Assembly (NCBI GenBank): GCA_963697995.1
Contig: OY969110.1
Coordinates: forward strand, 1,063,404-1,127,403
Origin: an uncultured Chlamydiae bacterium
GTDB lineage: Bacteria; Chlamydiota; Chlamydiia; Chlamydiales; JAJFMB01
Length of the DNA: 64,000 nucleotides
Direction: 5' to 3'
The position numbers and the translations under genes are program-made. This document shows positions 23,416-52,203 of this stretch, piece after piece. Below the pieces are notes generated by a model, which did no database searches, was not told the origin of the DNA, and was given only the letters and a program-made list of their open reading frames with translations. Each line of letters starts with the position of its first letter. Position 1 is the stretch's first letter.

Positions 23416-23695
23416 TAGTCGGCCCTTAAAAAAGTCCTCTCCCATAAAAAGTGCCCCTTTTGACAAAAAAGGCGTTTTACTCCTCACCAAACCCCTCAAG
23501 GAGGGGTAAGCGTCGTTTACCGCTTTTTTTGTTGCAAAAGGATCGCTTTTTCTTTGGAGAGTGCGTGTTCCATTCGCGAAATTTTTAAGTTTTTCTCATT
23601 GTCATATAATTAAACCTTGCAAAATAGGCTATGTCTTTTCTCCTCGTTAACTGCAAATTTTTCTCAAGGACCCCTTACTTTTTCAGGGCGGACTA
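23416..23695 (+). mobile_element. MITE-like element, copy 1 (280 bp, orientation A)
   Basis: The termini are tagtcggccct... and ...cagggcggacta. It aligns over its full length with 44113..44392 and, in reverse, with 25593..25872 and 51943..52203. It encodes no transposase. Confidence 0.8.
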
Positions 23696-23800
23696 GTTAA
23701 GTCTTTTGGAAGTTGTCAAGAAAGGGACTTGTCTGTTAATCTATTTTTTAGTTGAATGTGAAAAAAAGGGAAAAATGGTTTTTAACTTATGGAGAAAAGT

Positions 23801-24550
23801 ATGAAACAGAAAATGGTCGCATTTATTGGAAGTGTTGTTCTTTCTTGTGGTTATGTCCAGGCAGCTTCATTTGTACCTCTTTACAATGAAGGATTTAGAA
23901 GACCACAAACTGAGGAAGAGAGTTTTTTGGTTGAGCATGTTGAAGCAAGTCTTGCAAAAGCTGAGGTTCTTGATTCTAAGCTTGAATCTTCTCAACTTGA
24001 AATTGGTGGTATGAGTAGCAATAAGGTAAGGCATGTCTTGAATGGTCTTTGCTCTCTTTCTGAGTGCACTTATTTAGAAATTGGTGCTTACAAGGGATCT
24101 ACTTTTGTTTCAGCACTTTATGGAAATCTTGAGACGCTTGCAGAAGCGATCGTTTGTGATAACTGGTCTCAGTTTGATGCCCCACGTAGTCAGTTTTTAG
24201 ATAACTGTGAAAAGCACTTAAGTGGCTATCCATTTGCTATTCACGAATGTGATTGTTTTGCTCTCGATTTGAAATCTATTTCTCATCCTATTAAAGTGTT
24301 TTTTTACGATGGAGAGAACACTTTAGAGGCCCACGAAAAGGCTTTTACCTATTTTAATGAAGTTCTGGATGATTTGTTTATTGCAGTTGTAGATGACTGG
24401 AACTGGGATTTTGTAAGAGAAGGAACCTTCGCAGCCTTTAAAAAGCTTGGATATAGAGTTGTTTTCGAAAAGAACCTTTCCGCAAGACATAATGGTGACT
24501 TAGAAAACTATTGGAATGGTCTATACGTAGCGGTTATTTCAAAAAGTTAA
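23801..24550 (+). CDS. Class-I methyltransferase-like (Methyltransf_24-type) protein with a signal peptide; tandem paralog A
   Basis: The start at 23801 was chosen by RBS analogy (ggagaaaagtATG here, aggagaaaatATG in paralog B). MKQKMVAFIGSVVLSCGYVQA. Motifs include YLEIGAYKGSTF and FIAVVDDWNW. Confidence 0.65.
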   Translation: MKQKMVAFIGSVVLSCGYVQAASFVPLYNEGFRRPQTEEESFLVEHVEASLAKAEVLDSKLESSQLEIGGMSSNKVRHVLNGLCSLSECTYLEIGAYKGSTFVSALYGNLETLAEAIVCDNWSQFDAPRSQFLDNCEKHLSGYPFAIHECDCFALDLKSISHPIKVFFYDGENTLEAHEKAFTYFNEVLDDLFIAVVDDWNWDFVREGTFAAFKKLGYRVVFEKNLSARHNGDLENYWNGLYVAVISKS

Positions 24551-24748
24551 TTCAATTAAGGTCTTTAGGCTCTAAGAAGCTTAAAGACCCTTCACTCTCT
24601 CAACAGTTTAGAGTCCTAAGAGGTTGAGACTTCAGGGTCGACTATTTTAGTGACTCTTTTGGAACTTGTCACGAAATGAGGTTCTTTGTTAATCTGTTTT
24701 TTAATTGATAACATTTCTAAAAATTGAATTTTAATCTTAGGAGAAAAT

Positions 24749-25495
24749 ATGAATAAATGGATGACTTTACTTGGAAGTGTTATGCTTTCTTGTAGCCTTG
24801 TGGAGTCCTCTTCATTTCTAACGCTTTACAACGAAGAAGAAAGAAAACCCCAAACCGAGGAAGAGTTATTTTTGGTCGAGCATGTCGAAGCAAGTATTGC
24901 CAAAGCTGAGGCTTTAAAATCTAAGCTCGAACAACAACAGCTTGATATTGTAGGCATGTCTAGTAGTAAAGTTAGACATTTATTAAATGGTCTCTGCTCG
25001 CTTAATGGTTGTACTTACTTTGAGATTGGTGCTCACAAGGGTTCAACTTTTATTTCAGCGCTATATGGCAATTATGAGTCTATTGTTGAAGCAACCGTTT
25101 GTGATGATTGGTCTCTATTTGATGGACCTCGCGATCAATTTCTCGACAATTGTGAAAAAAATTTAAGTGGTTATCCGTTCACCATTCATGATTGCAATTG
25201 TTTTGATCTCGATTTAAAGGCTATTGCTCATCCGGTAAAAATCTATTTTTACGATGGGAATCATTCAGAAGAGGCGCAAGAGAAGGCCTTTACCTATTTT
25301 AATGAAGTTCTGGATGATTTGTTTATTGCAGTAGTGGACGATTGGAACTGGCATTTTGTAAGAGATGGCACTTTTACAGCTTTTAAAAAACTAGGATATC
25401 GAGTGGTTTTTGAGAAGCATTTGCCTTCAAGGTATAATGGTGACTTAGAAAACTATTGGAATGGTCTATACGTAGCGGTTATTTCAAAAAGTTAA
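24749..25495 (+). CDS. Class-I methyltransferase-like protein with a signal peptide; tandem paralog B
   Basis: 248 aa, collinear with paralog A, including the upstream leader region. Motifs include YFEIGAHKGSTF and FIAVVDDWNW. Confidence 0.65.
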   Translation: MNKWMTLLGSVMLSCSLVESSSFLTLYNEEERKPQTEEELFLVEHVEASIAKAEALKSKLEQQQLDIVGMSSSKVRHLLNGLCSLNGCTYFEIGAHKGSTFISALYGNYESIVEATVCDDWSLFDGPRDQFLDNCEKNLSGYPFTIHDCNCFDLDLKAIAHPVKIYFYDGNHSEEAQEKAFTYFNEVLDDLFIAVVDDWNWHFVRDGTFTAFKKLGYRVVFEKHLPSRYNGDLENYWNGLYVAVISKS

Positions 25496-25502
25496 TTTTT
25501 TA

Positions 25503-50285: not shown

Positions 50286-50295
50286 AAAAAGCTTG

Positions 50296-50335
50296 CTTAT
50301 AGTGCGCTCTTCTGAGCGCACTATAAGTTTTTTTT
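50296..50335 (+). terminator. Rho-independent terminator after rpsJ
   Basis: cttatagtgcgctc-ttct-gagcgcactataag (14-bp perfect stem) followed by T8. Confidence 0.9.
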
Positions 50336-50571
50336 ATCAATTTCCATCTTGAAAACTCTACATTTTCACACAGTTTAAGTTTATTTTTAAAGTGTCAGGG
50401 ATTATTTACTTTTCAAATAATTAACGATTGTTTAAAATTTGTCATGTTTTTTTACTTAAAACAATAAAGAAAAATAATAGATAAAATTAAAAAGTTTATT
50501 ATATGTGTTTTTGTTTATAATTGACGTTATTTTAAATTTTTGATAAGATTACTGTTTTATTTAGGTGGTAT

Positions 50572-51945
50572 ATGTCAGTACAAAGTAATAAGATTGATCC
50601 GGGATTACAAATGACCTCGACTTTTCGAAGGTTTGGAATGTGGGTTGGTAAAAACCCTAAAACAGTCAATACTTTGCTTTGCGCAAGCATCATCTATTCA
50701 GTAGGATCGTTTCTTTCTTTGCCTTTTAGAGTATCTTCCCTTGGCTTAAGCGGGATCGCAGTTAGGGCTGTGTCTGCTCCTTTAATCGGTTTAGCTTCCC
50801 TGGTAATGCTTCTGACTTTCCCTATTTTAACGCCCTACCGCTATAACATGAAACATCACAAATATACAGAGGGATCTTGTGAATCGGGTGAGCTCAAGTA
50901 TGAAAATGATGTACCTATTCTTCGATTGGATATGAAAGACCCCTATAAAGCAGGTTTTGCTCAAGGTTTTCTTTGTGGAGATGCCATTTTTTGGCTCATA
51001 CGCCTCTCGCCAATTTTTCTTTCAAAAGAAATCCCCCAAAGTGTGATCGAGAGGTTAGAGAGTAAGATTCCGGAAAAATATAGAAAAGAGATGCAAGGAA
51101 TTGCAGATGGGTGCAATGAAAGGAGAAAAGGTTGTTTTTTAAATGAACTAAAGGTCACAGCCGAAGAAGTTTTGCGACTCAATTTAGTTGTCGACTCCAC
51201 TTATCTTTTGGAAGAACAGGCGCAAACACAGGTTGCCTGTACCTCAATTATCGAAAAAGACGCTGATGGAAATATCGTTTTTGCAAGAAACATGGATTGG
51301 TTGTCTCTTAGCTTTGTGGGCGCCTGTAGCCTTGTCACACACCGTGTGGAGGAAGGCAATGTTTTAGTCAGTTCGACGATTGGAGGTTTTATTGGGGTTC
51401 CCACAGGAATGAATCAACATGGCCTTGCGATCGCCATCAACAGCTGCACCGATTTTATAGAAAATGAGAAGCGATCGCTTGAGGAGAGAACTCAAGGAAT
51501 GCCGATAGGGTTCTATACAAGGGCTTGCCTTGCAAAGTGTAAAAATATTGCCGATGTTGAAGAGTTTATCGAGGAAAATCCCTTTGCGGGACCCTACCAT
51601 TTAATTGTTGCCGATCGTGATGGCGGGGCATCGTTCCATCTCTTCCAAGGGGAATCGAGCTACCTTGTCAGGAAGCTTGAAGAGGGTAAGCCTTTAATCA
51701 CCTTTAATAACCCTTATATGGAAAATGGCCTTTGCAAAAAGGAATTGAGGGATTTTCATTTAGAGGATTTTATGAAGGATAGGAGAATGAGGCCTCTTGA
51801 AAACGCGCTTGCTCTAGAAGAGGTCAATAATAATCGCACGCTTCACTCGCTTGTGATGAGACCATCTGTCCCCCTTAAACTTGCAGTCGCTTTTGACAAT
51901 GCTTATTCTGCAGAAAATAATTTAAGAATTGTAGAGTTTAAATAG
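50572..51945 (+). CDS. Membrane-anchored Ntn-hydrolase (peptidase C45 / acid-ceramidase-like) with an N-terminal bilobed hydrophobic region
   Basis: 457 aa. The N-terminus has two adjacent ~20-aa hydrophobic segments (NTLLCASIIYSVGSFLSLPF / LGLSGIAVRAVSAPLIGLASLVMLLTFPIL). The catalytic-type block VACTSIIEKDADGNIVFARNMDW has the Cys nucleophile and RN.D pattern of C45, choloylglycine and acid-ceramidase Ntn hydrolases. Confidence 0.6.
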   Translation: MSVQSNKIDPGLQMTSTFRRFGMWVGKNPKTVNTLLCASIIYSVGSFLSLPFRVSSLGLSGIAVRAVSAPLIGLASLVMLLTFPILTPYRYNMKHHKYTEGSCESGELKYENDVPILRLDMKDPYKAGFAQGFLCGDAIFWLIRLSPIFLSKEIPQSVIERLESKIPEKYRKEMQGIADGCNERRKGCFLNELKVTAEEVLRLNLVVDSTYLLEEQAQTQVACTSIIEKDADGNIVFARNMDWLSLSFVGACSLVTHRVEEGNVLVSSTIGGFIGVPTGMNQHGLAIAINSCTDFIENEKRSLEERTQGMPIGFYTRACLAKCKNIADVEEFIEENPFAGPYHLIVADRDGGASFHLFQGESSYLVRKLEEGKPLITFNNPYMENGLCKKELRDFHLEDFMKDRRMRPLENALALEEVNNNRTLHSLVMRPSVPLKLAVAFDNAYSAENNLRIVEFK

Positions 51946-52203
51946 TCGGCCTTGAAAAAGTAAGGGTTCCTTGAGAAAAATTTGCAGTTAACGAGGAAGA
52001 GAGACATAGCCTATTTTGCAAGGTAGAAAAACTTAAAAATTTTGCGAATGGAACACAAGCTCTCCAAAGAAAAAGTGATCCTTTTGCAACAAAAAAAGCG
52101 GTGAACGACGCTTCCCACCCCCGTTCTCAGGGTTTGGTGAGGAGTAAAACACATTTTTTGTCAAAAGGGGCACTTTTTATTGGAGAGGACTTTTTCAGGG
52201 CCG
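51943..52203 (-). mobile_element. MITE-like element, copy 4 (261 bp, orientation B; internal ~20-bp difference and one truncated terminus)
   Basis: The left terminus tagtcggccttgaaaaagt starts at the TAG stop codon of 50572..51945. The right terminus ends ...cagggccg. The direct repeat TTTAAATA is present on both sides. Confidence 0.8.

Follow-up and report, generated by a model that had tools for sequence, protein, structure and literature searches.

Here, we describe a family of short repeats in the genome of an uncultured Chlamydiae bacterium (GenBank assembly GCA_963697995.1). The analysis centres on a 64-kb window of the 2,051,574-bp contig OY969110.1 (contig positions 1,063,404 to 1,127,403). 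The window is the whole stretch that was analysed, and coordinates given without further qualification refer to it. It contains four copies of an element of ~280 bp with inverted repeats of 19 bp at its ends. We interpret these, with a probability of roughly 0.85, as transposable elements of the miniature inverted-repeat type (MITEs), i.e. non-autonomous DNA transposons, of the IS5-family clade that includes ISRm12, ISGlo4 and an IS5-family element of Leptospira. An initial annotation, made from the DNA letters alone, had described the repeats as MITE-like and had assigned them to another transposase family.

Four copies of a short, non-coding element

The four copies, whose positions are given in Table 1, align end to end, and their multiple alignment has a mean column identity of 89%. 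Pairwise identities are 89–91% and form a star-like pattern in which all copies are equidistant. The initial annotation had recognised the four copies at these places and their end-to-end alignment, and both our reading of the stretches and the alignment agree with it. With up to three mismatches allowed, the 19-mer TAGTCGGCCCTGAAAAAGT has eight matches in the 64 kb, which are exactly the eight element ends; 0.02 matches are expected from shuffled sequence. A profile hidden Markov model of the family detected no fifth copy and no fragment in the window.

The elements are thus short (265–280 bp) and have 19-bp inverted ends. These had been called perfect, which is true of copies 2 and 3 only. 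In copy 1, the left repeat has a G>T change and one inserted A, and the right repeat a C>G change; in copy 4, there is a single change in the left repeat and a pair of changes in the right one. The right end of copy 4 reads CAGGGCCGTTTA in place of CAGGGCCGACTA, owing to an AC>TT change at 52204-5, and the copy is short because of a 15-bp internal deletion, with which the TATAAT region was lost. It is therefore not truncated at 52203, as had been proposed, and extends to 52207.

None of the four copies encodes a transposase, as the initial annotation had stated, and comparison of their open reading frames (ORFs) indicates that the elements are non-coding. The longest ORF has 66 aa and is found in copies 2 and 3; copies 1 and 4 and the sister lineages described below have it in broken form only, and no ORF is conserved across the copies and their relatives.

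Two co-directional hypothetical genes flank copy 1, at distances of 213 bp (to the ORF that it follows) and 94 bp (to the ORF that it precedes). The other three copies are each located between convergent genes: copy 2 between a hypothetical gene and argS, copy 3 between recJ and a gene for an M50 (RseP-like) peptidase, and copy 4 between an AAT/C45-type hydrolase gene and dnaK. The earlier statement that all copies adjoin stop codons or terminators applies to copies 2, 3 and 4, and not to copy 1. In copy 4, the first TAG of the element (51943-51945) is the stop codon of ORF 50572-51945. The sequence that we infer for this site before insertion, GAG TTT AAA TAA, would have had a stop at the same codon.

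A terminal repeat shared with IS5-family elements

To place the ends in a wider context, we scanned one genome per bacterial species for the exact 19-mer. The scan returned at least 55 loci, including an assembly named ‘Waddliaceae bacterium’ (eight contigs) and a Simkania sp. chromosome. Among the matches listed, others are from Planctomycetota, Verrucomicrobiota, Desulfobacterota, Acidobacteriota, Bdellovibrionota, Myxococcota, Actinomycetota and several classes of Pseudomonadota. A position 30–140 nt from a contig end is frequent among the listed matches, as is typical of high-copy repeats, which break assemblies.

Where the ends at a locus could be paired, they enclose either short elements of 187–617 bp or full-length elements of 1468–1497 bp. 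The 1497-bp element at locus L039 contains a single ORF of 445 aa with DUF772 and DDE_Tnp_1/DDE_Tnp_1_6 domains, and this transposase scores 510 bits on NCBIfam model NF033578 ‘IS5 family transposase’ (cut-off 275). Locus L024 carries a frameshifted relative and locus L013 an intact relative of 435 aa, and all three elements match TAGTCGGCCCTGAAAAAGT at 19 of 19 positions at one end. A tblastn search of plasmids led to transposases annotated as ‘IS5-like element ISGlo4 family’ and ‘ISRm12 family’ and to an IS5-family gene of Leptospira. The ends of these three elements have one to four mismatches to the 19-mer (15–18 of 19 positions identical). IS5-family transposases with such ends are only 37–51% identical to each other, and the protein family is very large, a profile search of the protein database giving 8000 or more clusters at E≤1e-20. 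An IS5-family DDE transposase is encoded by every full-length element found with these ends, and an IS630-type protein by none of the elements.

The flanks show the same organization as in the window, reading TA-TT-[element]-TT-TA for ISRm12 and the Leptospira element and TA-TAT-[element]-TAT-TA for L024. Two features that would mark the elements as derivatives of IS5-family insertion sequences (ISs), namely near-identical ends and the same target and duplication, are thus both present. A third, an interior taken from the subterminal regions of a parent IS, is not seen, as the window elements have no similarity to the full-length ISs in hand beyond ~20–24 nt.

A palindromic target with a 2–3 bp duplication

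The target was analysed using 78 distinct outward flanks, taken from the window and from all fetched loci. A TA adjoins GTCGG in 77 of the 78 flanks (the inner TA). Further out, the prevailing bases are a pyrimidine at -7 (55 flanks), T at -6 (61 flanks) and A at -5 (68 flanks), and positions more distant than -7 are unbiased. The second TA is spaced 2 nt from the inner one in 54 flanks and 3 nt in a further seven. The insertion pattern is YTA-NN(N)-[TAGTCGG...CCGACTA]-NN(N)-TAR, which corresponds to a palindromic target, and in most intact elements the 2–3 nt between both TAs are directly repeated on either side. All eight flanks in the window are consistent with YTA-NN(N)-TAR.

In copy 2, the duplication is TT (25591-25592 and 25873-25874) with an outer TA at 25589-90 and 25875-76; in copy 3, it is GAT (44110-44112 and 44393-44395) with an outer TA at 44108-09 and 44396-97; and in copy 4, it is AA (51941-42 and 52208-09). 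The longer direct repeats originally reported for copies 2 and 3, TATTTA and TAGATTA, are composites of the TA of the element, the 2–3 bp duplication (TT, GAT) and the TA of the target. The repeat reported for copy 4, TTTAAATA, arises in part by chance from the AC>TT change; the real duplication is AA. The family occupies four unrelated sites, with a duplication of its own at copies 2–4 and none at copy 1. Short non-coding elements with terminal inverted repeats, unrelated intergenic sites and target duplications are what is understood by a MITE, so this part of the initial annotation is upheld.

A paralogous empty site next to copy 3 provides a direct view of the insertion. The stretch 44516-44740 contains a recJ 3' end, a spacer and an M50 peptidase 3' end, and reads TCTTAGACTAAAG without interruption at the position equivalent to copy 3. 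When the element and one GAT are removed, the stretch carrying copy 3 aligns with it gap-free at the junction. Copy 3 thus gained 283 bp rather than 278 bp, which excludes a duplication of TA only. The underlying segmental duplication spans ~230 bp at ~87% identity (44006-44480 and 44516-44740), with the MITE in its first copy only; the real end of recJ is in the first copy and the real end of the peptidase gene in the second. A related genome (L063; ENA ERZ25039557 contig_68991) has three tandem recJ 3' ends, 175 bp apart (5669-5749, 5844-5924 and 6019-6099), and duplication of the recJ end seems to be recurrent in the lineage.

At locus L001 (1786-2175), two MITEs are abutted head to tail. 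The junction reads CGACTA-AG-TAGTCGG, with AG repeated beyond the second element. The second MITE appears to have used the end of the first as half of its target, which means that the element's own end is able to serve as a half-target.

Relatives of the element

Full-length homologues of the window elements, with 60–70% identity, are four MITEs of the ‘Waddliaceae bacterium’ assembly (JBAUVX01) and a 276-bp copy on the JGI metagenome contig Ga0210077_1030503. The copy in Simkania sp. (OZ244056) is a 187-bp deletion form and matches the window elements in part. These relatives have the same ends, internal hairpin and target pattern as the window copies and differ from them in that each genome has its own subfamily. 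Copies within the Waddliaceae assembly are 92–96% identical, compared with 89–91% in the window; this closer identity within genomes indicates that each chlamydial lineage amplified a subfamily of its own. With MITEs of other phyla, the window elements have only the terminal ~20 nt in common.

A metagenome scan with a chlamydia-specific 22-mer of the right end matched two contigs only, one with a full copy (L058) and one with a partial copy (L057). No match was found in the viral contigs scanned with the 19-mer, nor in the plasmid collection searched with the MITE. Our literature search found no description of a MITE family in chlamydiae and none of the terminal sequence in this context, and a large MITE survey (PMC11602168) mentions neither the terminal sequence nor chlamydial MITEs.

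Among the loci with the same ends, the stretch 6308-7986 of L021 (1679 bp) is a MITE from Phycisphaerae that contains a nested IS of the IS4 family. The transposase of the nested IS has 390 aa and scores 269 bits on NF033592.

A conserved internal hairpin

The GC hairpin inside the element that had been reported from the letters is present, and it is only the tip of a far longer, imperfect hairpin that is found in all four copies. It folds more stably than shuffled sequences, with z = -6.5 as DNA and z = -9.2 as RNA. Covariation was assessed on nine sequences from three lineages. In this set, 93.8% of cells are paired, compared with 48–62% when partners are slid, and seven of the 36 pairs have changed on both sides (e.g. 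UA to GC, GC to CG, and GC to AU to CG). Neither this percentage nor the covariation score was attained in any of 500 shuffles. The hairpin has been kept through compensatory changes between lineages. Selection on propagation of the element, a role at the RNA level and template switching between the arms of the palindrome are all candidate causes of its retention.

A hairpin of a different kind, CACCGGAAAT...ATTTCCGGTG, immediately precedes or overlaps the start codon of the transposase in each full-length IS examined and may control translation. We compared it with the hairpin of the MITE, found nothing convincing and rejected homology between the two.

Promoter-like sites and RNA families

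An outward promoter had been suggested from a shared tataat hexamer, with copy 1 as the example. Support for this is weak. A promoter-like site scores 10/12 in copy 3 and 9/12 in copy 2, and is not flagged in copy 1; copy 4 has lost it by deletion, and the sister lineages do not have it. Such sites are no denser here than in shuffles. The terminator-like stems within the element, too, are not common to all copies or to the sister lineages. A search of Rfam 15, which had been recommended as a check, gave no match over any copy at the gathering threshold and none at E≤1 over 23300-26000.

Other features of the window

Copies 1 and 2 stand in inverted orientation around two tandem paralogous genes (23789-24550 and 24749-25495), which have 76% nucleotide identity over 300 nt and no Pfam match. 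A composite transposon formed by these two copies (23416-25872) was considered and rejected, as the outer flanks do not match (aa and tt) and copy 2 has its own duplication.

Tandem paralogy with 70–77% nucleotide identity is also found in a run of three ORFs at 6399-10528, in the regions 12654-13508 and 14248-15217, and in the ORFs 34389-36005 and 36262-37830. A 21-bp tandem repeat (at least three units, 95% identity) at 56599-56678, inside ORF 56037-57674, encodes a heptad of the KVEDLNK type. Rfam also reports a SNORD36 match at 39589-39671, within the coding region of a fused SecDF, with 31 bits (gathering score 30, E = 0.59); in a bacterial SecDF gene, this is almost certainly spurious.

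Table 1. Positions of the MITE copies and of associated features in the window and, in the last four rows, in fetched loci
Feature	Position	Strand	Remarks
MITE copy 1	23416-23695	+	280 bp
MITE copy 2	25593-25872	-	280 bp; both 19-bp terminal repeats perfect
MITE copy 3	44113-44392	+	280 bp; both 19-bp terminal repeats perfect
MITE copy 4	51943-52207	-	265 bp
Long imperfect internal hairpin, copy 3	44133-44258	+	Element positions ~21-146; ~125 nt; GC-rich stem at tip
Equivalent hairpin, copy 1	23436-23561		From folds and self-inverted matches
Equivalent hairpin, copy 2	25730-25866		From folds and self-inverted matches
Equivalent hairpin, copy 4	52060-52196		From folds and self-inverted matches
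Promoter-like TTTGCA-N16-TATAAT	44280-44307	+	Inside copy 3; 10/12
Paralogous empty site	44516-44740	+	Diverged duplicate of the stretch carrying copy 3
Start-codon hairpin, L059	365-400		Full-length IS of the ISRm12/ISGlo4-like clade
Start-codon hairpin, L060	355-400		Full-length IS of the ISRm12/ISGlo4-like clade
Start-codon hairpin, L013	~3446-3510	-	Full-length IS of the ISRm12/ISGlo4-like clade
Start-codon hairpin, L061	360-400		Full-length IS of the ISRm12/ISGlo4-like clade

Interpretation

The four copies have the terminal repeat of full-length, transposase-encoding elements, carry no genes themselves and belong to a family whose insertion at YTA-NN(N)-TAR duplicates the central 2–3 nt. 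In the interpretation that we prefer, the 19-bp terminal repeats would be recognised and cleaved by a DDE transposase from one clade of the IS5 family. Supplied in trans by a full-length element, this transposase would bind both ends, excise or copy the element, and join it to staggered cuts made 2–3 nt apart between two TA dinucleotides. AT-rich spacers past stop codons or near terminators would supply suitable sites, and insertions there would do little harm, which would explain the location of the copies. The internal hairpin probably aids propagation, e.g. through pairing of the ends or folding of a transcript.

Several observations count against this interpretation. A tblastn search with the L039 transposase finds no transposase gene in the window. 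The same search of the fetched chlamydial loci finds no autonomous parent, and autonomous elements with matching ends were found only in other phyla, so that a partner in this or any chlamydial genome is hypothetical. No chlamydial members can be distinguished among the transposase clusters returned by the profile search, which are nearly all unnamed. Copy 1, which had already been noted to have no flanking direct repeat, reads TA-aa-[element]-gt-TA; recombination between copies could be the cause. The terminal TA can be assigned either to the element, giving a duplication of 2–3 bp, or to the target, giving one of 6–7 bp (TA-N2-3-TA). We favour the former, since 77 of 78 flanks have the inner TA and ~61 the outer one, and the element at L008 fits better with the latter. 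Finally, the element is missing after recJ in two relatives (L062 and L063, whose recJ has ~75–78% nucleotide identity). The spacers of these relatives cannot be aligned with the window and so do not provide a true orthologous empty site. Look-ups of the exact proteins of neighbouring genes, made to find empty sites, returned either nothing or only contigs from that sample which stop within the element.

The initial annotation had derived the family from IS630/Tc1-mariner elements, which would insert at a TA and duplicate it. TA targets are the hallmark of IS630/mariner, and every end in this family is flanked by TA or ends in it. Such an origin is nevertheless hardly credible, since all full-length elements with these ends are of the IS5 family, the directly repeated bases are the 2–3 nt that lie beyond the terminal TA, the gain relative to the paralogous empty site fits 283 bp and not 278 bp, and the second TA, 2–3 nt away, would not be expected of a target that is simply TA. 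It is also very unlikely that the repeats are a structured RNA or regulatory module serving the host (a small RNA, terminator, stabiliser or outward promoter) and kept by selection, rather than a selfish mobile sequence. The pairing of the hairpin, its seven doubly changed pairs, its folding beyond shuffles and the promoter-like site of copy 3 would all suit a module of this kind. The covariation, however, rests on three lineages, and template switching between the arms of a DNA palindrome mimics compensatory change without selection. Moreover, the copies occur in both orientations relative to their neighbours and three of the four lie between convergent genes, even a permissive Rfam threshold gives no match, neither the promoter-like nor the terminator-like sites are general to the family, and the best-conserved part is the end predicted to bind transposase, not the interior.

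The family had also been described as recently active, which the data do not bear out and which the pattern in the window argues against. The copies differ pairwise by 9–11%, and their equal distances of ~10% suggest a single old burst and subsequent decay. With their perfect ends and intact duplications, copies 2 and 3 could in principle still be mobilised, and short-read contigs of run ERR11563597 that encode the same proteins terminate within the element, as is usual for repeats. Degeneration is seen in copies 1 and 4, whose ends have mutated at about the rate of the interior, and no insertion polymorphism was found. Taken together with the lack of a transposase in the window, this makes it unlikely that the family is still active in this genome. 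More broadly, a tentative synthesis is possible, even if the odds are against it. The 19-bp end would be the fixed ‘socket’ of one IS5 clade in at least nine phylum-level groups, despite the low identity of the transposases; the hairpin would be a functional module needed for the spread of the MITE (through end pairing or a folded transcript) and not a relic; and the target would mimic two abutted ends. If this were true, dormant MITEs could be woken by any ISRm12-like transposase arriving via horizontal transfer, and the mimicry of abutted ends by YTA-NN-TAR would make the elements attract insertions beside themselves, as in L001.

We consider this a real and fairly ordinary MITE family, and our general understanding of MITEs is unchanged by it. 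It is of note, in addition, for a terminal repeat that recurs in many phyla, for its palindromic target and for the conservation of its hairpin. The work adds a MITE family for chlamydia-like bacteria and assigns it to what we believe to be the correct parent transposase family. Recurrence of this terminal repeat and of the TA-NN-TA target from Chlamydiota to Planctomycetota, Desulfobacterota, Spirochaetota and Pseudomonadota provides a simple and testable rule for one large IS5 clade. For genome annotation, the family is worth masking or labelling, since its repeats break short-read assemblies and one of them supplies the stop codon of a gene.

Comparison with known systems

The Correia elements (NEMIS) of Neisseria are intergenic, TA-associated MITEs of 100–300 bp with long hairpins, and may carry promoter-like hexamers. 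From what is generally known of them, they resemble the window elements in their intergenic location, their association with TA and their long hairpin. Their ends are unrelated to those of the window MITE, which lacks a conserved promoter-like site and whose parent IS family has been identified.

A MITE derived from IS5-family elements has been described in Acinetobacter as MITEAba12 (PMC6382973). As far as its description goes, MITEAba12 is like the window elements in being short, having terminal inverted repeats and target duplications, lacking a transposase and being thought to be mobilised in trans. Going by the same description, it differs from them in sequence, in target and in the length of the duplication, which in the window is 2–3 bp between two TAs.

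The closest counterparts are ISRm12 of Sinorhizobium meliloti, ISGlo4 of Trichlorobacter lovleyi and related ISs of the IS5 family, whose terminal repeats and flank pattern are like those of the window elements. These ISs are ~1.5 kb long and encode a DDE transposase of 435–450 aa, whereas the window elements are 280 bp long and gene-less, with only the terminal ~20 nt in common.

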